Positions 4,672 to 58,766 of a DNA stretch of 64,000 nt are shown piece after piece. The notes beneath the pieces were generated by a model. That model was given only the letters and a program-made list of their open reading frames with translations, made no database searches and was not told the origin of the DNA. Both the position numbers and the translations under genes were made by a program. Numbering within the stretch: position 1 is the first letter of the stretch; each line of letters begins with the position of its first letter. This stretch comes from Clostridia bacterium. Lineage in GTDB: Bacteria > Bacillota > Clostridia > Oscillospirales > CAG-272. The stretch spans positions 1,174 through 65,173 of the forward strand of contig JAFTSW010000008.1 of assembly GCA_017467085.1 (NCBI GenBank), read 5' to 3'.

Positions 4672-4700
4672 TTGCCATTCCTTTGGCTTTGTGCTATACT
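4672..4700 (+). promoter_or_regulatory. sigma-A type promoter for fumC
   Basis: TTGCCA, 17 nt spacer, then TGcTATACT (extended -10). Confidence 0.5.
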
Positions 4701-4772
4701 ACTTGCAGAAAAGAACGGCGCAAGGTGGCGCCCCTATGATACGTATCAAAGAGTCCTATAAGGAGAGAAGAG

Positions 4773-20972: not shown

Positions 20973-21087
20973 AGTAATGGCTGTTCCTTTCCTTAGATTG
21001 CGTCGAACTCCAACCTCTTTCTCCGAAAAATTTTCTCTCGTTAAAATTCGCAGAACTCCCGAGCGAGCTCGTACTCTATTCCTGCAA

Positions 21088-21519: not shown

Positions 21520-21520
21520 A

Positions 21521-23850: not shown

Positions 23851-23887
23851 CGTGTTCTCCGTTCTGCGCCCGCAAGTGCTTTGGGCG

Positions 23888-24874: not shown

Positions 24875-24892
24875 ATCCTGTTCCTACCTTCT

Positions 24893-25993
24893 TTATTTAA
24901 TGGTTTCTACGTAATAGCTGCCAACCAGCTTCAGCTTAGCGCAAATTGCCGACAGCTCGCAAAGCATATCCTCGCCGTTTTCGGTGTGGATGTTGCCCTC
25001 GGCCTCAATGTAGAAGTAGTAGCTCCATTCCAAATCCTTCATAGGACGGCTGCGCAGGTTACGCATATTGAAGCCGTGGGCACCCACGATGTTCAAGGCG
25101 TTAGCAAGGGAGCCTGCCTTGTTCTGTACGGTGAATACCAGAATGAAGTTCTCGCTTTCCTTTCTGTCGGTGGGGGCGGGGATGTTTCTCTCCTTGGAGA
25201 AGGAGGCAAAGCGCGTCACGTTGATTTTGCTGTCGTTGATGGCGCTCTCCAAAATCTGCAAGCCGAAAATAGAGGCGGTTTCCTCCGAGGCAATGGCGGC
25301 AATGGTGGGGTCGCCGGCGTTCTTCACGTATTCGGCAGCCAGCGCGGTGTTGGAGAAAACTTTGGTTTCTAAGCCGTGGGCGCGAATGTAGTCGGCGCAT
25401 TGGTCAAGCGCCTGGGGATGGCTCAATACCGTCTTGACGGTGTCCTTGGTGGCACCGGGGCAGGCAATCAGATGATGCACAATGGGCACGTCAATGACCT
25501 GGTTGATATGCAAATCTCCCGAGAAAATCAAATCCATTACCGTGCCAACCTCGCCTGCGTAGCTGTTCTCCAAGGGAAGAACGGCGCAGTCATAGGAGCC
25601 CTTTTCTACTGCCGCGTAGGCGTCCGCGAAATCGGCAAAGGCGGAAAGCTCAGCGGCAGGGAAGAGACGCTTGGCGGCAATGTGGGCGTAGGCACCCAGG
25701 GTTCCCGAATAGGTCACGCGCATACCCGTCATCAGCTTGTCCTGGTAGTCGCAGGAAATATCAATCACGTTCCGCAAAAAGCGGGCGTAGTAGGGCTCAA
25801 TGGCGGTAGAGGAAATATAGCTGCAATTCTTTTCAATCAGCGCCCTTTCTCTTGCCTCGTCCTTGACGGAAAGCCCGTTTGCCTTCTTGTGAGCGGCAAT
25901 CCTTTCAGCCGCCGCCATCCGTCTTTCAAACAGAAGCGCCATTTCCTTATCAATTTCGTTGATTTCTTTTCTTGCTTGCTCTAAATCGTTCAT
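24893..25993 (-). CDS. pheA: bifunctional chorismate mutase / prephenate dehydratase (P-protein type, with ACT domain)
   Basis: Start MNDLEQARKEINEIDKEMALLFERRM (chorismate mutase helix), a PDT core (ENSYAGEV, TRF) and a C-terminal ACT-like region. Confidence 0.9.
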   Translation of the reverse strand: MNDLEQARKEINEIDKEMALLFERRMAAAERIAAHKKANGLSVKDEARERALIEKNCSYISSTAIEPYYARFLRNVIDISCDYQDKLMTGMRVTYSGTLGAYAHIAAKRLFPAAELSAFADFADAYAAVEKGSYDCAVLPLENSYAGEVGTVMDLIFSGDLHINQVIDVPIVHHLIACPGATKDTVKTVLSHPQALDQCADYIRAHGLETKVFSNTALAAEYVKNAGDPTIAAIASEETASIFGLQILESAINDSKINVTRFASFSKERNIPAPTDRKESENFILVFTVQNKAGSLANALNIVGAHGFNMRNLRSRPMKDLEWSYYFYIEAEGNIHTENGEDMLCELSAICAKLKLVGSYYVETIK

Positions 25994-26040
25994 TTTTATA
26001 TGCTCCGTTTCTTGCCTGTGGCAAAACAAATAATAAACCA

Positions 26041-26075
26041 AAAAAGAAGGAGCCCTTCCGTTCGGGAAGAGCTCC
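26041..26075 (-). terminator. leader terminator T2 upstream of pheA
   Basis: The minus strand reads GGAGCTCTTCC-cgaac-GGAAGGGCTCC followed by TTCTTTTT, about 50 nt before the pheA start. Confidence 0.7.
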
Positions 26076-26439: not shown

Positions 26440-26698
26440 CAAATTTGAAAAGGCAATGACGAAGACGGGCTTCTTGGATAGCGGCAAAGAGAAACGGCGG
26501 TTGGTGCGAGCCGTAGCGCAGAGAGAAAGACCCTATCACTTCCGAGCCGGGAGCCTGAACGCAGTAGGGCTTCACGAGAGGCACAGCGTGAGTGTGCAGA
26601 GGTTGCTTGACCTCGTAAAGTGGCGTCTTATGGCGCAATTTGAGTGGTACCGCGAGTGTTTTCACCCGCCTCAAAGAATTTTCTTTGGGGCGGTTTTT
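26440..26698 (+). promoter_or_regulatory. T-box leader 1 (candidate specifier AUC, Ile)
   Basis: Stem I has an ATGA/GA kink-turn, an AGAGA bulge and the distal loop GTTGGTGCGAGCC. The T-box sequence AATTTGAGTGGTACCGCG lies at 26637..26654. The terminator is ccgcctcaaag/ctttggggcgg plus T5. ATC-A sits directly 5' of the lower-stem strand CTTC (26535..26538). Confidence 0.85.
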
Positions 26699-26732
26699 AT
26701 TTTATAAAAAATTTTTAAGGAGGATGTTCGTT

Positions 26733-29000
26733 ATGAATACAAACAACACGCAAAGTCGGTTATCGGAGATTGCAACCCGTATTAAGGAGCTGCGCGAGAT
26801 TATGGGCTTTTCCGTTGCGGAAATGACCGGGAAAACCGATGTGGACGAGGCTACCTATCTTTCTTATGAAAGCGGTACGGTGGACATTCCCTTCTCCTTT
26901 ATTCATAAGTGCGCGCTGGCATTCGGCGTTGAAATGACCGAGCTTTTGGAGGGCAGCACGGCAAAGCTCTCCACCTATACGGTCACAAGAAAGGGCAGAG
27001 GACAGGGAACCGCCAAGGAGGACGGCATCGATATTGCCAACCTGGCGCCCAAGTTCAAGGATAAGCTGGCAGAGCCCTACTACGTTACCTACGAGTATTC
27101 CCAGGCGCAGCAGAACAAGCCCATTCATCTGACCACCCACAGCGGCCAGGAATTTGACTTGGTGCTGAGCGGTAAGCTGAAAATCCAGGTCGGTGAGCAT
27201 ACCGAATTTCTGGAGGAGGGGGACAGCATCTATTACAATTCCTCCATTCCGCACGGTATGATTGCCGTAGACGGCAAGGACTGCACCTTCGTTGCGGTGG
27301 TTATGTCGGGCGACAACTCCAATGAAACGGTTGTCAGAAAGAGCGTTATCGCCGCCAAGAAGAGCGAGGCGCTGGTTTGCGAAAAATTCCTTGACGTAAA
27401 GGAAAACGCAAACGGGGAATTGGAGAGCATCCGCTTCAAGAATACCGAAAGCTTCAACTTTGGCTTCGACATCGTGGACGGCATTGCAGACAGCTATCCC
27501 GAAAAGCTGGCTATGCTTCATCTTGACAGAAACAAGAACGAGCGCCGCTTCACCTTCAAGGATATCAAGAAGGCGTCCAACCAGGTGGCAAACTATTTCA
27601 CCTCCCTTGGCATCAAGCGGGGCGATAAGGTTATGCTGGTGTTAAAGCGCCATTACCAGTTCTGGTTCTGTATGGTTGCGCTGCATAAGCTGGGCGCTAT
27701 CGCCATCCCCGCAACCAACCAGCTGAAGGAGCACGATTTTGAGTATCGCTACAATTCCGCAGGGGTTAAGGCAATCGTCTGCACCGCTGACGGTGATACC
27801 TATACCTATGCCCAAAGCGCCGCCAAAAAGTGTCCCCAGGTGGAAAAGCTTCTGATGGTCGGCGGTGTCAGAGAGGGCTGGCTTGATTTTGATAAGGAAT
27901 ATAAGCTCTTCTCCAGCAAGTTCGAGCGTCCCGCCGACTGCTCCGCGGGAGATGACCTTGCTCTGATGTTCTTCACCTCGGGTACCACGGGTAACCCCAA
28001 AATGGCAGCCCATAAGCATACCTACGCCCTGGGTCACTACGTGACGGCAAAATATTGGCACTGCTGTGAGCGTGATGGCTTGCATCTGACCATTTCCGAT
28101 ACGGGCTGGGGCAAATCCCTCTGGGGCAAGCTCTACGGCCAATGGCTCTGCGAGGGAGCGGTGTTCGTCTATGACTTCGATAAGTTTGACGAGAACGATT
28201 TGCTTCCTATGTTTGCCGAGTACAATATCACCACCTTCTGCGCGCCGCCCACGATGCTCAGAATGCTCATCCGCGGCGACCTTTCCAAGTTCGATTTGTC
28301 CTCTATCCACCATATGACCACCGCAGGCGAGGCGTTGAACCCCGAGGTGTTCAACCAGTTCAAAACGGCAACGGGTCTTGAAATTATGGAGGGCTTCGGG
28401 CAGACGGAAACCACCCTTGCTATTGCGAACCTTTACGGTATGACGCCCAAAATCGGCGCGATGGGTAAGGCAAATCCCCAGTATGACGTGGACGTGGTAG
28501 ACGCCGACGGCAAATCTCTTCCCGCGGGTGAAATCGGCGAAATCGTCATTCACACGGACAAGGAGGTTCCTTGCGGTCTGTTCAAGGAATACTACCGCGA
28601 CAGTGAAAAAACGGTGGACGCCTGGCACGACGGCCTGTATCACACGGGCGACACCGCTTGGCGGGATGAGGACGGCTACTTCTGGTACGTTGGGCGTGTG
28701 GATGACGTTATCAAGTCCTCGGGCTACCGCATCGGGCCCTTTGAAATCGAAAGCGTCATTATGGAGCTGCCGTACGTGTTGGAATGCGGCGTTTCCGCTG
28801 CTCCCGACCCCGTCAGAGGGCAGGTGGTCAAGGCAAGCGTTGTTCTCGTGAAGGGAACCGAGCCCACCGATGCGCTGAAAAAGGAAATCCAGAATTACGT
28901 CAAGGAGCATACCGCCCCCTACAAGTATCCCCGTATCGTGGTGTTCCGCGACTCTCTTCCCAAAACCATCAGCGGCAAGATTCAGAGAAACAAGCTTTAA
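26733..29000 (+). CDS. fusion protein: XRE-type HTH + cupin (PuuR-like) + medium-chain (ACSM/MACS-like) AMP-forming acyl-CoA synthetase
   Basis: ATG lies behind TAAGGAGG. aa 1-70 carry the HTH (RIKELREIMGFSVAEM...). aa ~110-200 carry the cupin (HSGQEFDLVLSGKLKIQVG...GDSIYYNSSIPHG). The remainder is the ligase, with FFTSGTTGNPK, GFGQTETT, YHTGD, SSGYRIGPFEIE and PKTISGKIQR. Confidence 0.85.
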   Translation: MNTNNTQSRLSEIATRIKELREIMGFSVAEMTGKTDVDEATYLSYESGTVDIPFSFIHKCALAFGVEMTELLEGSTAKLSTYTVTRKGRGQGTAKEDGIDIANLAPKFKDKLAEPYYVTYEYSQAQQNKPIHLTTHSGQEFDLVLSGKLKIQVGEHTEFLEEGDSIYYNSSIPHGMIAVDGKDCTFVAVVMSGDNSNETVVRKSVIAAKKSEALVCEKFLDVKENANGELESIRFKNTESFNFGFDIVDGIADSYPEKLAMLHLDRNKNERRFTFKDIKKASNQVANYFTSLGIKRGDKVMLVLKRHYQFWFCMVALHKLGAIAIPATNQLKEHDFEYRYNSAGVKAIVCTADGDTYTYAQSAAKKCPQVEKLLMVGGVREGWLDFDKEYKLFSSKFERPADCSAGDDLALMFFTSGTTGNPKMAAHKHTYALGHYVTAKYWHCCERDGLHLTISDTGWGKSLWGKLYGQWLCEGAVFVYDFDKFDENDLLPMFAEYNITTFCAPPTMLRMLIRGDLSKFDLSSIHHMTTAGEALNPEVFNQFKTATGLEIMEGFGQTETTLAIANLYGMTPKIGAMGKANPQYDVDVVDADGKSLPAGEIGEIVIHTDKEVPCGLFKEYYRDSEKTVDAWHDGLYHTGDTAWRDEDGYFWYVGRVDDVIKSSGYRIGPFEIESVIMELPYVLECGVSAAPDPVRGQVVKASVVLVKGTEPTDALKKEIQNYVKEHTAPYKYPRIVVFRDSLPKTISGKIQRNKL

Positions 29001-29144: not shown

Positions 29145-29417
29145 TAAAGCTATAAAGGCGTTGACGAAGAGTGCAGGTATGTGGCTTTTTCAGAGAAGCG
29201 GCGGTTGGTGCGAGCCGTTAAAATGCTATCCCCTGTTTGTAGCTTCCGAGCCGAGAGGAAGAAAGAGTATCGAGTAGAACCTCTCCGCGTTTGCTGCGTA
29301 AGTGCATACGGGTTGATTGACCCTGAGGGGCGGCTTTTGCCGCAATTTGAGTGGTACCGCGGGTTTTGATGTAACAAGCTCGTCTCAAAGTATTTATCTT
29401 TGTGGCGGGCTTTTTTT
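29145..29417 (+). promoter_or_regulatory. T-box leader 2 (candidate specifier GUA, Val)
   Basis: Same architecture as leader 1: TTGA/GA kink-turn, AGAGA, GTTGGTGCGAGCC. T-box AATTTGAGTGGTACCGCG lies at 29344..29361. The terminator is gctcgtctcaaag/ctttgtggcgggc plus T7. GTA-G precedes the lower-stem strand CTTC (29239..29242). Confidence 0.8.
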
Positions 29418-29443
29418 GTCGCCATAACAATCTTGGAGGAAAT

Positions 29444-31729
29444 ATGCAAGGAATTACGGGACTGGATTTGAAAATAAAGGAAATGGCAAACCGTATCCGT
29501 GAGCTTCGTGAAATCGAGGGCTTGACGGTGGTGGAGATGGCTGCCAAAACGGGTGTGTCCGAGGCAGAATATCTTGCCTGTGAAAACGGCGAGTCCGATT
29601 TGAACTTTGCCTTTATCTATCGCTGTGCCTCCGCCTTCAACGTGGACGTAACAGATATTATCGAGGGTAAAAGCCCCACGCTGAAGTCCTATACCTTAAC
29701 GAGAAGCGGACAGGGTCAGCGCATCGAAGAGGCGCACGGAATGACCTATTTCAACCTAGCATCCGCCTTCCGTAACCGTATCGCCGAGCCCCTGTACGTT
29801 TGCAGCCGTTATAGCGAAAAGGCGCAAACGGGGGACATTGAGCTGACTACCCACGATGGGCAGGAGTGCGATATCGTTCTCAGCGGTCACCTGAAAATTC
29901 AGATTGGCTCTCATATTGAGGTTCTCGGCCCCGGTGACAGCATTTATTACGATAGCTCCACACCTCACGGTATGATTGCCGTGGAGGGTGAGGACTGTCG
30001 CTTCTACGCCATTGTGCTGAATCCCACGGGCGAGCCCATTCCCGAGCTGCAGCCCTCCAAGGCGGTCCAGAGCCGTCCTGCCAAGCGTGACGATAAGGAA
30101 AGAGTCTATTCTGCCTTCGTAGACACCGAGGAGGACGAAAACGGTACCCCCACCTCTATTACCTTCAAAAACACCGACACCTTTAACTTTGCCTACGATG
30201 TAGTAGACAAAATTGCCGAGAAGGAGCCGAGAAAGCTTGCCCTCTTGCACGTGGCAAGCGATAAGACGGAAACCAGGCTTTCCTTCTCCGATATCAAGAA
30301 AAATTCCTGCCGCGCCGCCAACTACTTTAAGTCCCTCGGCATCAAGAAGGGGGACCGCGTGATGCTGGTGCTGGGCAGACACTACCAGTTCTGGTACGCC
30401 ATTCTTGGGCTTCACCGCCTGGGCGCTATCGCCATTCCTGCCATGAACCAGCTGCTGGACCACGACTTAGAATACCGCTTCAAGGCGGCAGGCGTGTCCG
30501 CTATCCTCTGTACGGGGAAGGGCGGCGTTTCCACCGAGGTGGATAAGGCAGAGGCGCAGCTTGGCAGAAGCCTTATCAAGATTATGGTAGGCGGCAAAAA
30601 GGAGGGCTGGCGCAGCTTTGACGAGGAATGCGCCTTATACAGCACCCACTTTGACCGTACCGCCGATACCCCCTGTGGCAACGATACGCTTCTGATGTTC
30701 TTCACCTCCGGCACCACGGGCTATCCCAAAATCGCCGTACATAACCATAAGTACCCCCTGGGTCACTTCCACACCGCCAAGTATTGGCACAACGTGGACT
30801 CGGACGGCTTGCACTTCACCATCTCGGATACGGGCTGGGCAAAGGCGCTCTGGGGCAAGCTCTACGGTCAATGGCTCTGCGAGGCGGCAACCTTTGTGTA
30901 CGATTTCGAGCGCTTCCACGCGGACGATATCCTTCCTATGTTCGCCAAGTACCAGATTACCACCTTCTGCGCACCGCCCACGATGCTCCGTATGATGGTC
31001 AAGGAGGACATCTCCAAGTACGACCTCTCCTCCGTCAAGCATATGACCACGGCAGGCGAAGCGCTGAACCCCGAGGTTTACCGCCAATTCGAGGAAGCCA
31101 CGGGCTTGCAGATTCTGGAGGGCTTCGGTCAGTCCGAAAGCACTATGATTATCGGAAACCTGCGGGGCGCGCCTCATAAGATTGGCTCTATGGGCAAGCC
31201 TGCCCCCATTTACGACGTGGAGCTGCTCTCCGCTGACGGCAAGCAGGTTCCCGTGGGTGAATCGGGTGAAATCGTTGTCAAGATTGCAAACGGCTCTCCC
31301 TGCGGACTCTTCGACGGCTATTACCAGGACGAGGAAAAGACCCGCGAGGTCAAGCACGATGGCTACTACCATACGGGCGACGTCGCCTGGCGTGACGAGG
31401 ACGGCTTCTATTGGTACGTCGGTCGTGTGGATGACGTTATCAAGTCCTCGGGCTACCGCATCGGGCCCTTTGAAATCGAAAGCGTTATTATGGAGCTGCC
31501 GTACGTCTTGGAATGCGGCGTTTCCGCCGCACCCGACCCCGTCAGAGGTCAGGTGGTAAAGGCGAGCATCGTGCTGGTGCCGGGCACCGTTGCCTCGGAC
31601 GCCCTCGTCAAGGAAATCCAGGACTACGTCAAGACCCATACCGCACCCTACAAGTATCCCAGAATTATCGTTTTCCGTGACGCGCTTCCCAAAACCGCCA
31701 GCGGAAAAATCCAAAGAAATCTGCTGTAA
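29444..31729 (+). CDS. paralogous fusion protein: XRE-type HTH + cupin + ACSM/MACS-like acyl-CoA synthetase
   Basis: ATG lies behind GGAGGA. Same three-domain layout as 26733..29000. The N-terminal ~250 aa are strongly diverged from the paralog, while the C-terminal ligase subdomain is nearly identical. Confidence 0.85.
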   Translation: MQGITGLDLKIKEMANRIRELREIEGLTVVEMAAKTGVSEAEYLACENGESDLNFAFIYRCASAFNVDVTDIIEGKSPTLKSYTLTRSGQGQRIEEAHGMTYFNLASAFRNRIAEPLYVCSRYSEKAQTGDIELTTHDGQECDIVLSGHLKIQIGSHIEVLGPGDSIYYDSSTPHGMIAVEGEDCRFYAIVLNPTGEPIPELQPSKAVQSRPAKRDDKERVYSAFVDTEEDENGTPTSITFKNTDTFNFAYDVVDKIAEKEPRKLALLHVASDKTETRLSFSDIKKNSCRAANYFKSLGIKKGDRVMLVLGRHYQFWYAILGLHRLGAIAIPAMNQLLDHDLEYRFKAAGVSAILCTGKGGVSTEVDKAEAQLGRSLIKIMVGGKKEGWRSFDEECALYSTHFDRTADTPCGNDTLLMFFTSGTTGYPKIAVHNHKYPLGHFHTAKYWHNVDSDGLHFTISDTGWAKALWGKLYGQWLCEAATFVYDFERFHADDILPMFAKYQITTFCAPPTMLRMMVKEDISKYDLSSVKHMTTAGEALNPEVYRQFEEATGLQILEGFGQSESTMIIGNLRGAPHKIGSMGKPAPIYDVELLSADGKQVPVGESGEIVVKIANGSPCGLFDGYYQDEEKTREVKHDGYYHTGDVAWRDEDGFYWYVGRVDDVIKSSGYRIGPFEIESVIMELPYVLECGVSAAPDPVRGQVVKASIVLVPGTVASDALVKEIQDYVKTHTAPYKYPRIIVFRDALPKTASGKIQRNLL

Positions 31730-31758: not shown

Positions 31759-32418
31759 ATGCAGGAAAAAAGAATTACTATTTTTTCAGGGCACTACGGC
31801 AGCGGCAAAACCAATATCGCCGTCAATCACGCTCTTGCCCTGAGGGAAAAGCATTCACGGGTTGTCATTGCCGACATCGACATCGTCAACCCCTATTTCA
31901 GAACCAAGGATAGCGAGGCGCTTTTAGCGGAGCGCGATATCCGCCTTATCTGCTCGGCGTACGCCAACAGTAACGTGGATATTCCCGCCCTGCCCCCCGA
32001 AATCTACGCCGTGACGGACGATAAGTCCCTCTATGCGGTGCTGGACGTGGGCGGCGATGAGCGAGGCGCCCTCGCCCTTGGCAGATTGGTTCCCGCTATC
32101 AGAGAGGAGAACGATTACGAGATGGTGTTCGTCTTGAATCGCTTCCGTCCGCTGACACGGGATTTGGACGGTGTTTTCACCGTTATGCGTGAAATCGAGG
32201 CGGCGTGCGGACTCCGCTTTACCGCCCTGATTAACAACTCCAACCTTGGTGCGGAAACCACCGAGGAGGACGTGCGCGGCTCCGTTGCCTTCGCCAAGGA
32301 GGTTGCCGCCGCCGCCAATATTCCATTTTGGTATACAACGGTACACGAATCGCTCTGGCATCTGTTTTCCCAAGAGAGCGAGGACTACCGCCCCATATTA
32401 TTACAAAAACGTATGTAA
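31759..32418 (+). CDS. P-loop NTPase of the MinD/ParA/CooC-like (SIMIBI) type, function unknown
   Basis: The N-terminal ITIFSGHYGSGKTNIAVN is a deviant Walker A. The DIDIVNPYF and LDVGGDERG patterns are present. It sits between the ligase and the oxidoreductase genes. Confidence 0.6.
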   Translation: MQEKRITIFSGHYGSGKTNIAVNHALALREKHSRVVIADIDIVNPYFRTKDSEALLAERDIRLICSAYANSNVDIPALPPEIYAVTDDKSLYAVLDVGGDERGALALGRLVPAIREENDYEMVFVLNRFRPLTRDLDGVFTVMREIEAACGLRFTALINNSNLGAETTEEDVRGSVAFAKEVAAAANIPFWYTTVHESLWHLFSQESEDYRPILLQKRM

Positions 32419-32429
32419 AGGAGAATACC

Positions 32430-32636
32430 ATGGCAAAATTAACCTTCAAAGCAGAAAAATGCAAGGGCTGTGGCCTTTGTGTTGACGCTTGTCCCAAGCA
32501 GGTTCTGGCGCTTGACGCCGATACCATCAACCAGAAGGGACACCATCCCGTCAAGGCGGTCAACGAGGAGGCGTGCATTGGCTGTGCCTTCTGCGCCACC
32601 ATGTGTCCCGATTGCATCATTAAGGTAGAAAGGTGA
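32430..32636 (+). CDS. 2-oxoacid:ferredoxin oxidoreductase delta subunit (2x[4Fe-4S] ferredoxin)
   Basis: 68 aa with the clusters CKGCGLCVDACP and CIGCAFCATMCP. Confidence 0.85.
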   Translation: MAKLTFKAEKCKGCGLCVDACPKQVLALDADTINQKGHHPVKAVNEEACIGCAFCATMCPDCIIKVER

Positions 32637-32644
32637 GAAAAGCA

Positions 32645-33706
32645 ATGTCTGATAAGGTATTAATGAAAGGCAACGAAGCCATTGCCGAGGCCGCCATCAT
32701 CGCAGGCTGCCGTCATTATTTTGGCTACCCCATTACCCCCCAAACCGAAATTGCCGCTTATATGGCAAAGAGAATGCCCAAAATCGGCGGCACCTTCCTG
32801 CAGGCCGAGAGCGAAATTGCCGCCATCAATATGGTATACGGCGTTTCCGCAACGGGCAAGCGCGTGATGACCTCCTCCTCCAGCCCCGGAATTTCTCTGA
32901 AGGGCGAGGGACTTTCCTACTTAGCAGGTGCTGACCTGCCTGCCTTGGTGGTCAACGTGCAGCGCGGCGGCCCCGGTCTTGGCGGTATTCAGCCCTCCCA
33001 GAGCGACTATTTCCAGGCAACCAAGGGCGGCGCTCACGGTGACTTCCATATGCTGGTTCTGGCGCCTGCCTCCGTCCAGGAAATGGCAGAGTTGACGGTC
33101 AAGGGCTTTGCCCTGGCGGACAAGTACCGTATGACCTCTATGATTCTGGCAGACGGTACGATGGGTCAGATGATGGAGCCCGTTTCTCTCTCCTTCGATA
33201 TCGAGGAGGCTCCCGCAAAGCCCTGGGCTGTAACGGGGACCAAGCTTGAAAGACCCCACAACATCGTAAACTCTCTGTTCTTAAAGCCCGAAGAGCTGGA
33301 AAGAACCAACTTCGAGCGTTACGAGCGTTATAAGTACATCGAGGAAAACGAAGTGATGTACGAGGAATATATGATGGAGGATGCGGAAATCTGCGTGGCA
33401 GCCTTCGGCATTGCCGCCCGTGTTTCCAAGAACGCCATCAACGAGGCAAGAGCCAAGGGCATCAAGGTGGGTATGATTCGTCCCATCACCCTCTGGCCCT
33501 TCCCCACCAAGCAGTTTGCCGCGGCAGCAGAGAAGGTCAAGGCCTTCGTGTCCGTGGAGCTTTCTATGGGACAGATGATTGAGGACGTTCGCCTGGCAGT
33601 TAACGGCAAGGCGCCCGTTACTCTTTGCAACAGAGCAGGCGGTATGATTCCTGCGCCCGAACAGGTGCTGGCAGCGATTGAGGCCGCCAATAAAGGAGGT
33701 AACTGA
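32645..33706 (+). CDS. 2-oxoacid:ferredoxin oxidoreductase alpha subunit (VOR/KOR type)
   Basis: [31 protein letters not shown] is the typical N-terminus of the POR_N domain. Length and order fit a four-subunit OFOR. Confidence 0.85.
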
Positions 33707-33707
33707 A

Positions 33708-34451
33708 ATGGTAGTATTTGATAAACCCCATGCGCTTTCCGATGCGCCCCTGCATTATTGCCCCGGCTGTACCCACGGCATCGTGCATCGCCTGGTTGCC
33801 GAGGTAATGGACGAGCTTGGCATTGAGGGAAGAACCATTGGTATTGCCCCCGTTGGCTGCTCGGTTATGGCATATGACTATTTTAACTGCGATATGATTG
33901 AGGCTGCCCACGGCAGAGCTCCCGCCGTTGCGACGGGCGTAAAGCGCTCCGACCCCAATAACATCGTTTTCACCTACCAGGGTGACGGCGACCTTGCCTC
34001 CATCGGTATGGCAGAAACGGTACATAGCGCCGCCAGAAACGAAAATATCACCGTTATCTTTATCAACAACGCCATCTACGGTATGACGGGCGGACAAATG
34101 GCGCCCACCTCCTTGCCCGGACAGGTCACCCAGACCTCTCCCTACGGACGTGACGTTTCTCATTGCGGCTTCCCCATCAAGGTTTGCGAAATGCTTTCCC
34201 AGCTGGACGGCCCCGAGTATCTGGAGCGTGTAGCGGTCAACAACGTCAAGAACGTCAAGAACGCCAAGAAGGCTATCAAGAAGGCTTTTGAAAACCAGGT
34301 CAACGGAAAGGGCTTCTCCTTGGTAGAGGTCATTTCCTCCTGCCCCACCAACTGGGGTATGACGCCTGCTAAGGCTTTGGCTTGGATTGACGAGAAAATG
34401 ATTCCTTATTATCCTCTCGGGGTATATAAGGACAGAAGCGCAGGAAAGTAA
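33708..34451 (+). CDS. 2-oxoacid:ferredoxin oxidoreductase beta subunit (TPP-binding)
   Basis: YCPGCTHGI cysteine motif and the GDGD TPP-binding region. Confidence 0.85.
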
Positions 34452-34463: not shown

Positions 34464-35006
34464 ATGAAAACAACCCAGTATTTGTTTGCAGGCTTTGGCG
34501 GACAGGGCATTCTGTTCGCAGGTAAGTTTTTGGCATACCAGGGACTCAACGATGGCAAGAACGTCAGCTGGCTCCCCTCCTACGGTCCCGAAATGCGTGG
34601 CGGTACGGCAAGCTGCAGCGTCATCATCAGCGATATTCCCGTTGGCTCTCCCATCGTGTCGAATCCCGACGTATTGATTGCGATGAACCTGCCCTCCCTG
34701 GATAAGTACGAGTCCACCGTTGCCCCCGGCGGCACCATCTTCGTGGATTCCACGCTGATTTCCCGTAAGGTTACCCGTACCGACGTGACCGTGCATTACA
34801 TTCCTGCCACTCAGATGGCATCCGACAACAAAACCCCCACCCTTGCCAATATGATTATTATGGGTAAGGTTCTGGCAGAAAGCGGCACCTTCGAGGATGA
34901 GGAAAAGGTGCTTGCCGCCCTGCAGAAGGTTATCTCCGCAAAGCGTGCCGATATGTTAGACGTCAACCTTGGCGCTCTTCGCCTCGGCAAGGATTATCAA
35001 GGTTAA
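34464..35006 (+). CDS. 2-oxoacid:ferredoxin oxidoreductase gamma subunit
   Basis: 180 aa with the FAGFGGQGILFAGK N-terminus typical of gamma subunits. Confidence 0.85.
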   Translation: MKTTQYLFAGFGGQGILFAGKFLAYQGLNDGKNVSWLPSYGPEMRGGTASCSVIISDIPVGSPIVSNPDVLIAMNLPSLDKYESTVAPGGTIFVDSTLISRKVTRTDVTVHYIPATQMASDNKTPTLANMIIMGKVLAESGTFEDEEKVLAALQKVISAKRADMLDVNLGALRLGKDYQG

Positions 35007-35040: not shown

Positions 35041-36108
35041 ATGGAAATCAAAATCACCAGAAATCCTAACCCCGGTGTAAAGCCCGAGCCCTCCGTTCTG
35101 GGCTTCGGTAAATATTTCACCGACCATATGTTTATGATGGACTATTCCGCAGAGGAGGGCTGGCACGATGCCAGAATCGTCCCCTTCGGTCCTCTGATGC
35201 TCCATCCTGCCTGCACAGCCCTGCATTACGGAAGCGAAATCTTCGAGGGCTTGAAGGCATACCGCCGTGCTGACGGCAAGGTACAGCTCTTCCGCCCCAT
35301 CGAGAATATCCGCCGTATGAATCGCTCTGCCGAGCGTCTTTGCCTGCCCACCGTTCCCGAGGAGCTGGCAATGGAGGTTCTGACCAAGTTCATCTCCTTT
35401 GAACAGGATTGGACGCCCTCTGCCCCCGGCACCTCGCTCTATATCCGTCCCTTTATGTTCGGTAATGACGAAACCTTGGGTGTTCACGCGGTGAAGCACG
35501 CCACCTTCGTTATCATCACCTCTCCCGTAGGCAGCTACTATAAGGAGGGCATCAACCCCGTTAAGATTATGATTGAAGCAGACGATGTCCGCGCTGTTCG
35601 CGGCGGTACGGGTGAAGCCAAGTGCGGCGGTAACTACGCCGCCTCCAACCGCGCGGGTGAAAAGGCTGAAAAGGCCGGCTATTCTCAGGTGCTGTGGCTC
35701 GACGGTGTTGAGCGCAAGTACATCGAGGAGGTCGGCGCTATGAACGTTATGTTCAAGATTGACGGCGAGGTTGTTACCCCCGCGCTTCTCGGCTCCATTC
35801 TGCCTGGCATCACCAGAAAGTCCTGCCTTGAGCTTCTGCGCGCCGAGGGCTACCGTGTCAGCGAGCGCCGCTTGAGCATCGATGAGTTGGCAAAGGCATT
35901 GGAGGAGGGCAAGCTCGAGGAGGCTTGGGGCTGCGGCACCGCCGCCGTTATCTCTCCTATCGGTGAGCTTTGCTATATGGGCAAGAAGTACACCATCAAT
36001 AACGGCGAAATCGGCGAGGTGACTGCTCACCTCTACAATTCCTTGACGGGCATCCAGTGGGGAACCCTTCCCGATACCTATGGCTGGACTCTTCCCATTG
36101 AGGACTAA
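35041..36108 (+). CDS. ilvE: branched-chain amino acid aminotransferase
   Basis: 355 aa class-IV aminotransferase pattern (FEGLKAYR, EVGAMNVMF, GITR). Confidence 0.9.
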   Translation: MEIKITRNPNPGVKPEPSVLGFGKYFTDHMFMMDYSAEEGWHDARIVPFGPLMLHPACTALHYGSEIFEGLKAYRRADGKVQLFRPIENIRRMNRSAERLCLPTVPEELAMEVLTKFISFEQDWTPSAPGTSLYIRPFMFGNDETLGVHAVKHATFVIITSPVGSYYKEGINPVKIMIEADDVRAVRGGTGEAKCGGNYAASNRAGEKAEKAGYSQVLWLDGVERKYIEEVGAMNVMFKIDGEVVTPALLGSILPGITRKSCLELLRAEGYRVSERRLSIDELAKALEEGKLEEAWGCGTAAVISPIGELCYMGKKYTINNGEIGEVTAHLYNSLTGIQWGTLPDTYGWTLPIED

Positions 36109-36147: not shown

Positions 36148-36176
36148 TTGACAAAACCGAATGGCTGTGGTATAAT
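36148..36176 (+). promoter_or_regulatory. sigma-A promoter of T-box leader 3
   Basis: TTGACA, 17 nt spacer, TATAAT. Confidence 0.65.
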
Positions 36177-36184: not shown

Positions 36185-36449
36185 CAAATTTCAAATGCGA
36201 TGAAGGAATTATTTCTTTTCCTCATTTTACTGCAGAGAGTCGGCGGTTGGTGCAAGCCGATGTAAAGGGTTAAGAAAGTCTCATTCCGGAGCAGAATTTC
36301 CGAACCGAAAGTAAGAAATTCCGTATGCCTCGTTATCGGCTAATGGCTTGTTAGAGCCTGAGAGTGACCGTTTTTTAACGGTAATCAGGGTGGTACCGCG
36401 AAAAGTATTTTTCGTCCCTGAAGCGATTGCTTCAGGGGCGTTTTGTTTT
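36185..36449 (+). promoter_or_regulatory. T-box leader 3 (candidate specifier CUC, Leu)
   Basis: GATGA/GA kink-turn, AGAGAG, distal loop GTTGGTGCAAGCC. T-box AATCAGGGTGGTACCGCG lies at 36383..36400. The terminator is cgtccctgaagc/gcttcaggggcg plus TTTTGTTTT. CTC-A precedes the lower-stem strand TTCC (36280..36283). Confidence 0.85.
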
Positions 36450-36479
36450 ATTTTACCCATCACGAAAGGAAGAGAAACT

Positions 36480-37871
36480 ATGAAAAGAATTTTTGTGTCC
36501 GATATGACCTTGCAGAGCGGCAAGAGCCTGTCCTTCAAGGAAAAGATTGAAATTGTCAGACACCTGGACAAGCTAAACGTGGACGTTATCCATATGCCTG
36601 CCATCGTCAACGCCACGGCGGACGCTTTGCTTATCCGTACCGTTTCTGCCTTTGTTAAAAACAGCGCCCTTTCCGTTCCCGCGGGCTTTACCGAGGAGAG
36701 CGTGAGGGCAGCGTATGCCGCCGTTTCCGCGGCGCATAAGCCCCGCCTTTCCTTCTTTATGCCCGTTTCTGCCGTGCAGATGGAGTATTCCTTGCACAAG
36801 AAGGCGGCAAAAATGAAGGAGCTTGCCGCCGCCCTCTTTGCCCAAGCCGTTGGGTATGGGGTGGAGGTAGAGCTGGTAGCGGAGGATGCTACCCGTGCCG
36901 ATAAGGATTTCTTGCAGCAGATGATTCTGCTTGCCGTAGAAAAGGGCGTTTCCGTTATCACCCTGTGTGACGATGAGGGAGCCCGTCTGCCTAACGAGTT
37001 TGGTGCCTTCGTGTCCGAGGCTTGCGCCCTCGTTCCCAAGGACGCCGCTGTGCGTGTAGGCGTGCTTTGCCGCAATACCGTCGGTCTTGCTACCGCCTCG
37101 GTTGTGACGGCAATGCAGGCAGGCGCTGAGGAAATCAAGTGCTGTGTAGGCGAGGCTGACCTTCCCGATATCACCACCTTTGCGGGCGTTCTTGCCGCCT
37201 GTGGCGACAGATGCGGCTTCTCCTCTGCCATCAGCTATCACGAGCTGCAGCGCATCACCAAGCAAATCAAGTGGATTTGCGGCGAGGAGGGGGCAGGCGC
37301 CGTCAAGGGTTCCGTTGCCGAGGAAGCCCCTGCCGTTTACGATAAGAACGATAGCTTCGAGGCGATTTCCGACGCCGTTGTCAAGCTGGGCTATGACCTC
37401 TCCGAGGAGGATATGAAGCGTGTCTATGAGGAATTCGGGCGTGTTGCCGAAAAGAAAGCGGTAACGGGCAAGGATTTGGAGGCGGTGATTGCCAGCGTGG
37501 CAATGCAGGTGCCCGAAACCTATCGCCTTATCAGCTACGTGGTCAATAACGGCAATATCATTGCCTCCTCTGCTCAGATTAAGTTGGAGAAGGAGGGTAA
37601 GGAGATTGCGGGCATCGCTATGGGCGACGGTCCCATTGATGCCGCCTTCCGTACCTTGGAGCAGATTATCGGCTACCACTATGAGTTGGACGATTTCCAG
37701 ATTCAGTCCGTTACCGAGGGCAGAGAAGCCGTTGGCGCGGCGCTCGTCAAGCTCCGCGAGGGCGGACGGCTCTATTCGGGTAAGGGTATTTCCACCGACA
37801 TCATCGGCGCATCTATTCGCGCGTACATCAGCGCCGTCAACAAAATCGTTTATGAGGAGGCAAACAAATGA
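36480..37871 (+). CDS. LeuA/CimA-family homolog with degenerate catalytic motifs but intact C-terminal LeuA-dimer regulatory domain
   Basis: The N-terminal VSDMTLQSGKS replaces the canonical DTTLRDGEQ. The HxHxxD/GERAGN region reads LCRNT...GEADLPD. The C-terminal ~120 aa (GDGPIDAAFRTLEQI...IQSVTEGREAVGAALVKL...GISTDIIGASIRAYISAVNK) match the LeuA allosteric domain. Confidence 0.7.
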   Translation: MKRIFVSDMTLQSGKSLSFKEKIEIVRHLDKLNVDVIHMPAIVNATADALLIRTVSAFVKNSALSVPAGFTEESVRAAYAAVSAAHKPRLSFFMPVSAVQMEYSLHKKAAKMKELAAALFAQAVGYGVEVELVAEDATRADKDFLQQMILLAVEKGVSVITLCDDEGARLPNEFGAFVSEACALVPKDAAVRVGVLCRNTVGLATASVVTAMQAGAEEIKCCVGEADLPDITTFAGVLAACGDRCGFSSAISYHELQRITKQIKWICGEEGAGAVKGSVAEEAPAVYDKNDSFEAISDAVVKLGYDLSEEDMKRVYEEFGRVAEKKAVTGKDLEAVIASVAMQVPETYRLISYVVNNGNIIASSAQIKLEKEGKEIAGIAMGDGPIDAAFRTLEQIIGYHYELDDFQIQSVTEGREAVGAALVKLREGGRLYSGKGISTDIIGASIRAYISAVNKIVYEEANK

Positions 37872-40387
37872 AACTCTCTTTCTCCACAAAGGGATGGCAC
37901 GGAAAAAGCTTTGAAGAGCTTTGCGATATAGCCAAAAGCCTGCGCTTTTCGGGCGTAGAGCTGCATAACGTATCCAACCTTCTGTTCACTGCCTCTGATA
38001 GCGCCCTGCAGGAAAACGCCAGCGCCGCAACCCTGCGCCGCCTGTATGAATTAAAGCTGCAGATTCCCTGTATTGACAGCATTTGCGATATCGCCTCCGC
38101 CGAGGATGCCGAGGCGGCTAAGGCAGAGGTAGAAAAGTGCATCCGTATCGCCGCGCGTCTGCATATCCCCTACGTGCGTTTGCACGCCTTGAAGAGCGAG
38201 GGAGCAGACCCTGCTGCCGTTTCTGCCTTCTTGGAGGCCATGCTTCCCGTAGCGGAGGAAGCCTCCGTTGCCCTTCTGCTTGAAACCAGCGGACTTTTCT
38301 CGGATACGGCGGCTATGCGTGCTTTGCTCGATAGCTTTGCCTGCGATGACCTGGCGGCTCTTTGGGATACCTGCGCCACCTACTTTGACGGCGGCGAGGA
38401 GCCCGAAAAAACTATTGAGAACCTGGGCGCCTACGTCAAGCATATCCACGTGAAGGACGCCAAGAGGGAAGGGGATAGCATCGTCTATTCCTTGATGGGT
38501 GAGGGCGAGTACCCCGTTGCCAACCTCATTTACGCCCTGCGCTCGGTTAACTACAACGGCTTCGTTTCCTTGGAGTGGTCCCCTGCCTGGTGCGAGGAGA
38601 TTGATGACCTGGAAATCATTCTCTCCCAGTTCGAGAGCTATATGAGCCAGTGGAACGATACCTCCAAGGGCGATAACTCTCTCTATTACAACAAGGCGCA
38701 TACGGGTCGCTACGTCTGGAAGAAGGAGCTTCTGATTGAAGAAACCTTCCCCCGTGTGCTGGACAGAATGGTGGAGGAATTTCCCGACCAGCTGGCGTTC
38801 AAGTATACCACCCTTAACTATACCCGTACCTACTATGAATTCCGCAAGGACGTAGACGAGTTTGCCCGTTCTCTGATTGCGATGGGCGTTAAGGCTGGGC
38901 ATCACGTAGCAGTCTGGGCAACCAACGTGCCTCAGTGGTATATTGCCTTCTGGGCAACCACCAAGATTGGCGCCGTTCTGGTTACGATGAATACCGCCTA
39001 TAAGATTCACGAGGCAGAGTACCTCTTGAAGCAGTCCGATACCCATACCCTGATTATGGTAGACGGCTACCGTGATTCCAACTATTCCGCCATTATCGCC
39101 GAGCTTTGCCCCGAGCTTGCGGAAAAGAGCGCTGACGGAAAGCTCCACAGCAAGCGGCTCCCCTTCCTGCGTAACGTCATTACCGTAGGCTTCAAGCAGA
39201 AGGGCTGTATCACCTGGGAGGAGGCGCTGGAAAAGGCGGCATCCGTTCCCCAGGAGGAGGTTTTGCGCCGCGCCGCCCTGGTAGATAAGGACGACGTCTG
39301 CAATATGCAGTACACCTCGGGTACCACGGGCTTCCCCAAGGGCGTTATGCTCACGCATTATAACGTAGTCAACAACGGTAAGTGCATCGGTGACCGTATG
39401 GATTTGTCCACGGCAGACCGTATGATGATTCAGGTGCCTATGTTCCATTGCTTCGGAATGGTGCTGGCAATGACCGCCAGTATGACCCACGGCGCCACCC
39501 TTCTGCCCTTGCCCTATTACTCTCCCAAGCCCGCCCTTTCCTGCGTGCATAACGAGAGAATTACCGCCTTCCACGGCGTTCCCACGATGTTTATCGCTAT
39601 ACTGGAGCACGAGGATTTCCCCAAGACCGACTTCTCCTATATGAGAACGGGTATTATGGCGGGAAGCCCCTGTCCCATCTCGGTTATGAAGGACGTGGTG
39701 GAGAAGATGCATATGTCCGAAATCACCATCGTGTACGGACAAACCGAGGCATCTCCCGGCTGTACCATGAGCTCCACCGACGACCCCATCGAGGTGCGCG
39801 TCAGCACGGTAGGCAGAGCCCTGCCCGAAATCGAGTGTAAGATTGTAGACCCCGAAACGGGCGAGGAATGCCCCGACGAGGTAACGGGCGAGTTTGTTGC
39901 CCGTGGCTACAACATTATGAAGGGCTATTACAAAATGCCCAAGGCAACCCTGTCTGCCATTGATAAGGATGGCTGGCTCCATACGGGCGACCTTGCCTGC
40001 CGTACCCCCGAGGGCAACTACCGTATCACGGGCCGCTTGAAGGATATGATTATCCGTGGCGGTGAGAATATCTACCCCAAGGAAATTGAGGAATTTATCT
40101 ATACCCATCCCAAGGTCAAGGACGTGCAGGTTATCGGCGTGCCCGACGAGCAGTACGGCGAGGAAATTATGGCTTGCATCATCATCAAGGATGGCGAGGA
40201 AATGACCGTAGCGGAAATGAAGGAATATATCAACGCCCATATGGCGCGCCACAAGGTGCCGCGGTATATCGAGTTCGTTACCGAGTTCCCCATGAACGCC
40301 GCGGGAAAGATTCTCAAATACAAGATGCGCGAGGAAGCCATTGAAAAGCTTGGCTTGCAGAAAGCGGCAAAAGTGGTAACGGCATAA
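37868..40387 (+). CDS. fusion protein: xylose-isomerase-like TIM barrel (aa 1-~270) + FadD/YngI-like AMP-forming acyl-CoA ligase
   Basis: ATGA overlap with the upstream gene. The N-terminal domain has GVELH...LLLETSG...HIHVKDA...VSLEWSP. The ligase has YTSGTTGFPKG, GQTEASP, LHTGDL and GKILK. Confidence 0.8.
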   Translation: MKLSFSTKGWHGKSFEELCDIAKSLRFSGVELHNVSNLLFTASDSALQENASAATLRRLYELKLQIPCIDSICDIASAEDAEAAKAEVEKCIRIAARLHIPYVRLHALKSEGADPAAVSAFLEAMLPVAEEASVALLLETSGLFSDTAAMRALLDSFACDDLAALWDTCATYFDGGEEPEKTIENLGAYVKHIHVKDAKREGDSIVYSLMGEGEYPVANLIYALRSVNYNGFVSLEWSPAWCEEIDDLEIILSQFESYMSQWNDTSKGDNSLYYNKAHTGRYVWKKELLIEETFPRVLDRMVEEFPDQLAFKYTTLNYTRTYYEFRKDVDEFARSLIAMGVKAGHHVAVWATNVPQWYIAFWATTKIGAVLVTMNTAYKIHEAEYLLKQSDTHTLIMVDGYRDSNYSAIIAELCPELAEKSADGKLHSKRLPFLRNVITVGFKQKGCITWEEALEKAASVPQEEVLRRAALVDKDDVCNMQYTSGTTGFPKGVMLTHYNVVNNGKCIGDRMDLSTADRMMIQVPMFHCFGMVLAMTASMTHGATLLPLPYYSPKPALSCVHNERITAFHGVPTMFIAILEHEDFPKTDFSYMRTGIMAGSPCPISVMKDVVEKMHMSEITIVYGQTEASPGCTMSSTDDPIEVRVSTVGRALPEIECKIVDPETGEECPDEVTGEFVARGYNIMKGYYKMPKATLSAIDKDGWLHTGDLACRTPEGNYRITGRLKDMIIRGGENIYPKEIEEFIYTHPKVKDVQVIGVPDEQYGEEIMACIIIKDGEEMTVAEMKEYINAHMARHKVPRYIEFVTEFPMNAAGKILKYKMREEAIEKLGLQKAAKVVTA

Positions 40388-41214
40388 TGATACAAGGAAA
40401 ATATACGGTGATAGACGCCCATTGTCATATCTATCCCGAGAAAATCGCCTCCCGTGCCGTCAACGGAACGGATACCTTTTACGGGCTTTCCTCCTTTGGA
40501 GAGGGAACGGTCAGGCATCTGTTAGGGGTAGGTGAGGAATCGGGAATTGACGGGTATCTTGTCCAGTCTGTCGCCACCACACCGCACCAGGTTTCCAGCA
40601 TCAACCGCTTTATCGCCGAAGAGGTCAATCTCTATCGGGGTAAAATGGTAGGGCTTGGCACCCTGCATCCCGACTCTGCCGATATTCTGGGTGACGTGGA
40701 GGAAATTGAGGCGTTAGGGCTTCACGGCGTTAAGCTGCACCCCGACATCCAGCGCTTCCGCGCGGATGACGATGCCTGTGCCGAGATTTACGCCCTCTGT
40801 GAAAAGAAGGGACTCCCCATTCTGATGCACGCAGGGGACCACCGCTACGATTATTCCAACCCCAACCGCCTTGCCCCCGTCCTTGCGTCGCATCCCGCGC
40901 TATGTATGGTGGCGGCGCATCTGGGCGGCTGGTCTGTCTGGGAGGACGCCAAGGAAAAGCTCTCGGGCTTCTCCAACCTCTACGTGGATACCTCCTCCTC
41001 CTTCCCCTTTTTAATGGAAGGGGAGGCAAGGGAGATTATCGAGGCTTTCGGCGTTTCCCACGTCCTCTTTGCCACGGACTATCCTATGTGGCACCCCAAG
41101 GGGGAAATTGAGTATCTGCTTCGCTTAGGCTTCACGGATGAGGAATACAAAATGCTCTTTTCCGAGAATGCCAAGGCCGTTTTCGGTAAGGAAAATTTCT
41201 CCTCTCTTATTTGA
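40387..41214 (+). CDS. amidohydrolase-2 family metal-dependent hydrolase/decarboxylase-like TIM barrel
   Basis: TAATG overlap with the upstream gene. N-terminal VIDAHCHIYPE, later HGVKLHP, MHAGD and FATDYP. Confidence 0.75.
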   Translation: MIQGKYTVIDAHCHIYPEKIASRAVNGTDTFYGLSSFGEGTVRHLLGVGEESGIDGYLVQSVATTPHQVSSINRFIAEEVNLYRGKMVGLGTLHPDSADILGDVEEIEALGLHGVKLHPDIQRFRADDDACAEIYALCEKKGLPILMHAGDHRYDYSNPNRLAPVLASHPALCMVAAHLGGWSVWEDAKEKLSGFSNLYVDTSSSFPFLMEGEAREIIEAFGVSHVLFATDYPMWHPKGEIEYLLRLGFTDEEYKMLFSENAKAVFGKENFSSLI

Positions 41215-41216
41215 AT

Positions 41217-41407
41217 AAAAAGGGGCTGTCTCACTATTTCGTGAGGCACCAAAAAGGAGCCGAAAACGGCTCCTTTTTTGCCCCTGTTCGTTTCACTTTT
41301 GACGAAAAGCGAAACGAACGCACAAATTTTCTTCGAAAATTTTCTCATTTTGCGCCTTTCTTGACGCAAAATGAGACGGGCTGTCTCAAATGAGACAGCC
41401 CGTTTTT
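41217..41407. mobile_element. MITE-like intergenic element, copy 1 (short form)
   Basis: Terminal inverted repeats AAAAAGGGGCTGTCTCA / TGAGACAGCCCGTTTTT and four internal hairpins. A near-identical copy with an expanded second hairpin lies at 57604..57827. Confidence 0.65.
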
Positions 41408-58691: not shown

Positions 58692-58766
58692 TGGGATGTC
58701 GCCAAGTGGTAAGGCACAGGACTTTGACTCCTGCATCCGCTGGTTCGAACCCAGCCATCCCAGCCA
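58692..58766 (+). tRNA. tRNA-Gln (anticodon UUG) with encoded CCA
   Basis: TGGGATG-TC-GCC-AAGTGGTAA-GGC-A-CAGGA-CTTTGAC-TCCTG-CATC-CGCTGGTTCGAACCCAGC-CATCCCA-G-CCA folds as a cloverleaf. Confidence 0.9.

Follow-up and report, generated by a model that had tools for sequence, protein, structure and literature searches.

The operon described here lies in a 64,000-nucleotide stretch of DNA from a Clostridia bacterium (assembly GCA_017467085.1, contig JAFTSW010000008.1; the whole stretch is called the window, and positions are counted from its first letter). It consists of a T-box leader and three open reading frames, all on the forward strand. ORF1 (36480..37871, 463 residues) encodes a catalytically degenerate paralogue of the isopropylmalate synthase LeuA, ORF2 (37868..40387) a fusion of a xylose-isomerase-like TIM barrel to an ANL-type acyl-CoA ligase, and ORF3 (40387..41214) an enzyme of the amidohydrolase-2 family. 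An initial annotation, made from the sequence alone, had noted that the three frames overlap, and both junctions are indeed tight: ORF1 and ORF2 share ATGA at 37868-37871, closely preceded by the ribosome-binding site GAGGAGG, and ORF2 and ORF3 share TAATG at 40385-40389. A bidirectional intrinsic terminator (41373..41406, both strands) with a 15-bp stem, eight GC pairs and T runs on each side closes the operon.

Transcription would start at a sigma-70-type promoter (36148..36176, forward strand) consisting of TTGACA, a 17-nucleotide spacer and TGnTATAAT with the extended TG, which matches the consensus at 12 of 12 positions and is the best match within the 13.5 kb scanned. The T-box leader that follows (36191..36422, forward strand) aligns with the complete Rfam model RF00230 (model positions 1-219 of 219; 127.2 bits against a gathering score of 93) and is the sole Rfam T-box in the whole window. 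Its specifier is the leucine codon CUC (36280-36282), followed by an A and then by the 3′ strand of stem I; the specifier-loop context is GAAAGU-CUC-A-UUCC (36274-36287), with a purine after the codon. The T-box core GGGUGGUACCGCG (36388-36400) contains the UGGU bulge that would pair with the ACCA 3′ end of the tRNA. An intrinsic terminator (36413..36450, forward strand; hairpin 36413-36440) has a 12-bp stem with eight GC pairs and ends in the T run TTTTGTTTT. The element CGUCCC is common to the terminator stem and the 3′ strand of the antiterminator, so that the two structures compete. There is no tRNA-Leu gene in the window, where the single tRNA gene is tRNA-Gln(UUG) (58692-58766, forward strand).

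Related loci were collected by scanning a genome collection with one genome per species. The 80 loci returned all belong to Clostridia metagenome-assembled genomes (MAGs), largely from rumen and hindgut samples; many are labelled Acutalibacteraceae, Oscillospiraceae or Ruminococcus, and some Lachnospiraceae. T-box occurrence and the conservation of ORF1 were scored over 83 orthologues or loci carrying the LeuA-like gene. A T-box is present in 68 of these loci: in 67 it lies 70-225 nucleotides 5′ of ORF1, and in the remaining one it heads a longer operon. Automatic parsing read the specifier of 63 leaders (CTC in 57, CTG in 6) and inspection by eye added four more CTC, so that all 67 specify leucine. 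Short tandem-like repeats (TTAGGTGCG/TTTGGTTGC units, AAGCCGATCAGG units) lie 5′ of the T-box core in two metagenome loci, L119 (~540-700) and L169 (~4650-4800), and the specifiers of both are unreadable for that reason. The initial annotation had named a leucine T-box for an interval that begins downstream of the leader itself, and the Rfam match, the CUC specifier and the recurrence of the leader all agree with it; control of the operon by a leucine T-box is proposed with very high confidence. By the established T-box mechanism, read-through of the terminator would occur only with uncharged tRNA-Leu, and the three tightly overlapping genes driven from the leader would form a leucine-starvation-induced operon.

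ORF1 retains the overall architecture of LeuA but not its active site. Pfam identifies an HMGL-like domain (residues 14-223, 100 bits) and a LeuA_dimer domain (residues 328-456, 110 bits); the HCS_D2 domain, present in the genuine LeuA encoded at locus L146 of a metagenome, has no match in ORF1. The AlphaFold2 (AF2) model [mean predicted local distance difference test (pLDDT) score 85.5] comprises a TIM barrel (residues 1-225), a short disordered linker (~270-292, with residues 270-283 disordered in the place of subdomain I) that replaces subdomain I, a subdomain II (residues 293-343) and an allosteric domain (residues 344-463). Foldseek finds its best full-length matches in Mycobacterium tuberculosis LeuA (3fig, 1sr9), and the barrel superimposes on 3eeg with a TM score of 0.92. 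The NCBIfam models for LeuA, CimA and NifV score ORF1 at about half of their cut-offs or less, the best being LeuA with 270 bits against a cut-off of 532.

Alignment with Neisseria meningitidis LeuA (3rmj) shows that DTTLRDGEQ has become SDMTLQSGK and HCHNDLGLA has become LCRNTVGLA. Comparison with the L146 LeuA gives the same replacement of HCHNDLGLA; in addition DTTLRDGEQTPG has shrunk to DMTLQSG-----K, NGLGERAGN to G----EADLP, and some 27 residues that include AFAHESGIHQHG, the part of subdomain I with the AFAHESGIHQ loop, are missing altogether. The positions of the metal ligands, Asp and two His in genuine LeuA, are occupied by S, L and R in ORF1. This is a property of the whole family, since among the 83 orthologues no sequence has an Asp in the metal-Asp column or a His in either His column. 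The initial annotation had recognized the degenerate motifs and had concluded that the protein is probably not a synthase. Because the metal Asp/His/His are absent from all orthologues and subdomain I is lost, we go further and predict with very high confidence that ORF1 is a pseudoenzyme, dead as a synthase. A Claisen-condensing activity (towards isopropylmalate, citramalate or a related product) that employs other residues was considered and rejected. The LeuA fold and the conserved E131, D136 and R139 of the EDATRAD motif would suit such an enzyme, but with the metal ligands, the AFAHESGIHQ segment and GLGERAGN all gone, and equivalog scores near half of the cut-offs, it is extremely improbable.

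The loss of catalytic residues and of one subdomain could equally be read as the decay of a functionless leuA remnant. This too was rejected and is, if anything, the more improbable of the two explanations, as the reading frame is intact in 83 species-level loci that share 44-65% identity, the gene is tightly coupled to ORF2 in 76 of 76 loci and in general directly succeeds the T-box, and the allosteric domain is near-invariant. ORF1 is under purifying selection and is therefore a pseudoenzyme and not a pseudogene. Selection is strongest at the C-terminus: mean conservation over the 83 orthologues is 0.78 in the allosteric domain as against 0.58 in the barrel. The initial annotation had held that the C-terminal LeuA domain is kept, which the LeuA_dimer match bears out, as do the allosteric-domain motifs common to ORF1 and the L146 LeuA [GDGPxDA, VTEG and G.G(I/L)STD(I/V)I..SI.AY..A(I/V)N]; the GDGP(I/V)DA loop is kept within an allosteric domain that is near unchanged. 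PDB sequence searches with the C-terminal half of ORF1 or its profile returned only 6e1j and the regulatory domain of LiCMS (3f6g), both weakly. The LeuA literature describes the architecture of the allosteric domain, and no list of the residues of the leucine pocket was found in it. The ORF1 family comprises more than 120 clusters at 90% identity that are 50-65% identical to ORF1, and the few of them that bear an NCBI name are all called ‘hypothetical protein’.

Pfam divides ORF2 into AP_endonuc_2 (residues 20-238), AMP-binding (299-688) and AMP-binding_C, in agreement with the fusion of a TIM barrel and a ligase that the initial annotation had described. The C-terminal ligase (38708..40387, forward strand; AMP-binding 306 bits, AMP-binding_C 66 bits) is of the PRK12583/YngI/ACSF2-like kind. 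Its best family match is the PRK12583/YngI-like NCBIfam subfamily model NF009233, at 703 bits and below the cut-off of 832. The ANL core motifs A3, A5, A7, A8 and A10 are intact: a script located TSGTTGFPK, YGQTE, GRLKDMIIRGG and PMNAAGK, and HTGD was read in the translation. The ligase is 70-89% identical across orthologues, and its mean conservation is 0.83 as against 0.58 for the TIM domain. By these motifs and this conservation, the ligase half of ORF2 is the one clearly intact, strongly conserved enzyme of the operon.

The N-terminal half of ORF2 (37868..38650, forward strand; AP_endonuc_2, 82 bits against 31) gives an AF2 model with a pLDDT of 89.7 that superimposes on xylose-isomerase-like barrels with TM scores of 0.70-0.78 at 13-23% sequence identity. 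Profile alignment to Art22, AsbF and MJ1311 places E139, D167, H194 and E236 of the window protein in the canonical metal-ligand columns. The xylose-isomerase-like fold that the initial annotation had assigned is thus confirmed, but the domain is not simply a normal member of that family: the E-D-H-E site is complete in only 30 of 62 TIM orthologues in the clade that has the degenerate LeuA, with changes that include D167N, E236V/I and E139K/Q. The matches that Foldseek and PDB searches gave for the TIM domain were all generic barrels of sugar isomerases, epimerases and dehydratases and pointed to no substrate; a literature search for Art22, the closest solved relative, returned noise only.

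ORF3 matches Amidohydro_2 (PF04909) over its full length (108 bits against 26), again in line with the initial assignment. H12, H14, K116, H118, H148, H178 and D231 are invariant in 27 orthologues, and ORF3 is accordingly a predicted metal-dependent enzyme of hydrolase fold with an intact metal site. The closest solved structure, 3irs, is uncharacterised, and the search gave no hint of a substrate. The enzyme is an optional accessory, as an amidohydrolase gene comes next after ORF2 in only about half of the loci with a degenerate LeuA. The trio is consequently not the conserved unit that the initial annotation had envisaged, all the more since the LeuA-like gene was added, in one clade only, to a wider module (see below).

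The constant partner of ORF1 is ORF2. The TIM–ligase fusion directly follows ORF1 in 76 of the 76 loci in which the contig continues, with a gap of -4 to +6 nucleotides in most. Immediately 5′ of the operon and on the same strand, the window contains the following genes. Two tandem fusions of a helix-turn-helix (HTH) domain, a cupin and an acyl-CoA ligase (26640-29000 and 29402-31729) have MbcS (NF047394) as their best family match, at 452 and 433 bits and below its cut-off of 850. They are followed by a P-loop protein of 219 residues resembling ParA, CbiA and NUBPL (31759-32418) and by a 2x[4Fe-4S] ferredoxin (~32430-32636), both identified by Pfam. The α, β and γ subunits of a 2-oxoacid:ferredoxin oxidoreductase (VOR) come next; the α subunit (32633-33706) is VorB-type (NF005507, 536 bits against a cut-off of 399), and the β (33678-34451) and γ (34464-35006) subunits were assigned by Pfam. 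The last gene before the promoter encodes the branched-chain aminotransferase IlvE (35041-36108; NF009897, 473 bits against a cut-off of 307). In most related loci the same neighbours adjoin the operon. The HTH domains of both window fusions are of the HTH_19/HTH_3 type, and most related loci have one or two such fusions, so that each branched-acid ligase may be equipped with a sensor of its own. The P-loop protein keeps its place between the ligase and the ferredoxin and VOR genes in nearly all of them and may be the Fe-S cluster carrier for VOR.

Two related loci join these genes under one leader. In L012, a single leucine T-box precedes the entire operon of HTH-cupin ligase, VOR, IlvE and ORF1 to ORF3, and in L063 the order is T-box, ORF1, ORF2, IlvE, VOR. 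Since the leucine T-box there would induce VOR and IlvE under leucine starvation, both would run in the biosynthetic, carboxylating direction. The window encodes together an acid-CoA ligase, VOR α, β and γ with ferredoxin, and a branched-chain aminotransferase. The initial annotation had suggested a role related to leucine and isovalerate, and the VorB-type oxidoreductase, IlvE and the two MbcS-like ligases upstream strengthen this suggestion, as does the sharing of one leucine T-box operon in some genomes. MbcS itself activates 2-methylbutyrate and isobutyrate and is poor on isovalerate (PMC10026030), which leaves room for a third, leucine-controlled ligase specific for isovalerate.

We therefore consider the following scheme. 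The ORF2 ligase would activate isovalerate (3-methylbutanoate) to isovaleryl-CoA, the adjacent VorB-type oxidoreductase would reductively carboxylate this to 4-methyl-2-oxopentanoate, and the adjacent IlvE would transaminate the oxoacid to leucine; the two upstream MbcS-like ligases would serve isobutyrate and 2-methylbutyrate likewise. ORF1 would dock on the ligase fusion and transmit leucine binding to the ligase, in the fashion of HisZ and HisG, and the committed step would then be under double leucine control, by tRNA charging and by allostery. The parts of this scheme differ in strength. A role of the ligase in leucine supply is likely. Isovalerate as its substrate stands a little below an even chance, being drawn from gene context and the T-box specifier alone. 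The assignment of ORF1 as an allosteric subunit of the ligase, made by analogy, is possible but on balance not the way we would wager. As a whole, the explanation that we favour is that ORF2 is a leucine-regulated isovalerate-CoA ligase supplying a reductive-carboxylation route to leucine, and that the degenerate LeuA is its HisZ-like leucine sensor; it is tentative and held at somewhat under even odds.

An exhaustive TIM-domain profile search revealed stand-alone TIM proteins of ~270 residues; one of their genes immediately follows the gene of an unfused ligase sharing 59% identity with that of ORF2. A second scan, of metagenomes and with stand-alone TIM proteins as seeds, yielded 80 loci. 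The TIM gene adjoins or is fused with such a ligase in 58 of these, as separate genes in the order ligase–TIM (27), as fusions (30) or as separate genes in the order TIM–ligase (1). With the exception of L146, none of the 58 modules has a LeuA-like gene within 5 kb. Leucine T-boxes precede at least 20 of the LeuA-less modules; the core regex used for these counts missed four leaders that Rfam later found, and the counts for metagenome loci are therefore lower bounds. ORF3-like genes follow the unfused ligase–TIM pair in L098, L101, L103, L150 and L164 and the fusion in L113 and L148. The E-D-H-E site is complete in 85 of 86 TIM proteins of LeuA-less modules, as against the 30 of 62 given above for the clade with the degenerate LeuA; loss of TIM ligands in that clade shows no visible correlation with the presence of ORF3 when its loci are compared by eye. 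From this distribution, the ancient core is ligase plus TIM barrel, with or without the amidohydrolase, as a member of the leucine regulon, and the degenerate LeuA is a later addition found in the clade of Clostridia MAGs. The TIM barrel is an ancestral and probably catalytic partner of the ligase. Judged by its ligands, its metal site became dispensable in the clade that owns the degenerate LeuA, with the addition of that gene. The hosts of the LeuA-less modules appear to be Firmicutes.

In locus L146 (3261-7361, on one metagenome contig), a leucine T-box is followed by a TIM–ligase fusion and then by a genuine LeuA (756 bits against the cut-off of 532) that has complete catalytic motifs as well as the HCS_D2 domain. 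The fusion shares its leucine T-box operon with a genuine leucine-biosynthesis gene, which ties the ligase to leucine synthesis, and the locus may record the kind of association that came before the partnership with the degenerate LeuA. Elsewhere, the genes that flank LeuA-less modules are mostly housekeeping genes (uppS, cdsA, UDG, methyltransferase, NIF3) and uninformative. Pantothenate kinase genes and the S-component of an energy-coupling factor (ECF) transporter adjoin the unfused ligase–TIM pair in L094 (3692-5943) and a stand-alone ORF3-like amidohydrolase in L085 (7001-9350). A link to CoA or pantothenate is possible from these two loci only.

Several of these observations weigh against the isovalerate scheme. 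The ligase–TIM module is widespread with neither VOR nor IlvE within 5 kb and with no LeuA-like gene, so none of these is needed for the core function of the module. The near-universal E-D-H-E site and the recurring amidohydrolase in LeuA-less modules suggest a multi-step chemistry beyond that of an isovalerate ligase. The barrel of ORF1 has kept LeuA pocket residues (D8, T10, E38, S97, E131, D136, R139 and D164 over the 83 orthologues), because of which a ligand-binding or residual catalytic role of the barrel is possible. The E-D-H-E site, the recurring amidohydrolase and the pocket residues would fit a multi-step salvage of a leucine-related compound other than free isovalerate, in which the amidohydrolase frees or modifies the acid, the metal-dependent TIM barrel isomerises, epimerises or dehydrates it, and the ligase activates the product; the degenerate LeuA barrel may still bind the acid or its CoA ester, and the TIM step would be unnecessary in the clade that has it. 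The invariant catalytic residues of ORF3 and the leucine T-boxes ahead of LeuA-less modules are also as salvage would have them. Against this, no candidate substrate fits, and the closest solved relatives of the TIM barrel are sugar and cyclitol enzymes, at 13-23% identity, which do not connect it with branched acids. About half of the loci do without the amidohydrolase, and half of the clade with the degenerate LeuA can dispense with the TIM metal site at unchanged synteny and T-box. Salvage is, on this balance, an unlikely alternative, though one to be taken seriously.

The neighbouring genes also raise the question of whether isovaleryl-CoA, or another branched acyl-CoA, is supplied by the ligase as a primer for iso-branched membrane fatty acids when leucine, from which this primer normally derives, is scarce, with IlvE and VOR working in the degradative direction. 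Primer supply is the role of MbcS, the best match of the neighbouring ligases, in Staphylococcus aureus (PMC10026030), and lipid genes do occur near the module: FakA (fatty acid kinase subunit A) and PlsX are encoded directly 5′ of the fusion on the same strand in L142 (2295-4926), two ORFs in L163 (2362-4925) resemble FakA and PlsX by size and position only, and the genes downstream include uppS and cdsA in L100 and L103 and a member of the cdsA family in L101. These are, however, common housekeeping neighbours. Moreover, the leucine T-box also drives IlvE and VOR in L012 and L063, where a breakdown of leucine during leucine starvation would be senseless, and in L146 the fusion stands in an operon with genuine LeuA. 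We regard lipid-primer supply as improbable as the purpose of the operon, although neither fate of isovaleryl-CoA precludes the other.

Other features near the operon or its relatives were noted in passing. Locus L083 (7816-10020) belongs to a gut species that is common, its protein cluster counting 940 sequences; the trio stands alone there with neither VOR nor IlvE nearby and is followed by genes for Cys_Met_Meta_PP and HTS proteins of methionine biosynthesis. The reverse strand of the window carries a shikimate/phenylalanine block (19770-26041) that encodes 5-enolpyruvylshikimate-3-phosphate (EPSP) synthase, chorismate synthase, dehydroquinate synthase, a fused shikimate dehydrogenase–shikimate kinase (21521-22813) and a chorismate mutase–prephenate dehydratase–ACT protein, and, at lower coordinates, an ORF of 1418 residues (10540-14796, reverse strand).

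Branched-chain volatile fatty acids, given to livestock as ‘isoacids’, are a requirement of the fibre degraders of the rumen and hindgut, and to our knowledge no genes have been defined for the commitment of isovalerate to leucine. The isovalerate scheme makes the module a concrete, widely distributed candidate for this commitment with built-in leucine control. If it is true, the operon would be a clear bacterial case in which an enzyme of amino-acid biosynthesis has been put to new use as a sensor subunit, and would provide a function for a family that NCBI names only ‘hypothetical protein’. The most far-reaching version holds that a dead LeuA recruited as a leucine-sensing subunit forms, with VOR and IlvE, the long-missing, doubly controlled committed step with which Clostridia of the rumen and gut turn isovalerate into leucine by reductive carboxylation, and that the system evolved stepwise from separate ligase and TIM genes through fusion and LeuA capture to the decay of both barrels; this version is doubtful. 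The ligase–TIM module, with or without the amidohydrolase, would in addition be an unrecognised member of the leucine T-box regulon in many gut and digester bacteria, apparently Firmicutes. Full-text literature searches found no description of the cluster, of the degenerate LeuA or of a bacterial isovalerate-CoA ligase. The protein family and the gene combination are new, while the parts (T-box, ANL ligase, pseudoenzyme partner) are individually of known kinds.

The operon may be compared with five known systems. Classical tracer work showed that rumen anaerobes convert isovalerate to leucine by reductive carboxylation. The route is mentioned in PMC7356843, and literature searches found no gene-level description of it. 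The gene set of the window covers each step that this route needs, and MAGs from rumen and hindgut are the main source of the related loci; a dead LeuA, a TIM barrel and an amidohydrolase are, on the other hand, not called for by the classical pathway. MbcS of S. aureus channels branched short-chain acids from outside the cell into CoA metabolism. The ORF2 ligase is ATP-dependent like MbcS, but it belongs to another ANL subfamily, is fused to a TIM barrel, stands behind a leucine T-box and is paired with a dead LeuA.

The leucine T-box leaders of Bacillus ilv-leu and leuS have a CUC specifier. The leader of the operon has the same architecture as known leucine T-boxes, with CUC followed by a purine, the UGGU bulge and the competing terminator and antiterminator, but it precedes genes that are not those of an aminoacyl-tRNA synthetase, a classical ilv-leu operon or a transporter. 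Compared with the DRE-TIM metallolyase LeuA of M. tuberculosis (1SR9/3FIG) and N. meningitidis (3RMJ), ORF1 has the same TIM barrel, subdomain II and allosteric domain of two β-β-β-α units. It lacks the metal Asp/His/His, GLGERAGN and subdomain I, as well as the catalytic Arg in the window copy, is ~40-50 residues shorter and is always found beside the ligase gene and not with leuBCD. The model for the proposed role of ORF1 is HisZ, a dead paralogue of histidyl-tRNA synthetase. HisZ has no catalytic activity itself, but it activates the enzyme that is its partner and mediates the feedback inhibition of that enzyme (PMC9734150). The two systems have no sequence relationship, the partner in the operon is an ANL ligase and not a phosphoribosyltransferase, and both the interaction and the regulation are inferred in our case. 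What ORF1 would share with HisZ in its complex with HisG(S) is the proposed kind of partnership, in which a dead paralogue that keeps its ligand-binding part serves as the non-catalytic partner at a committed step.

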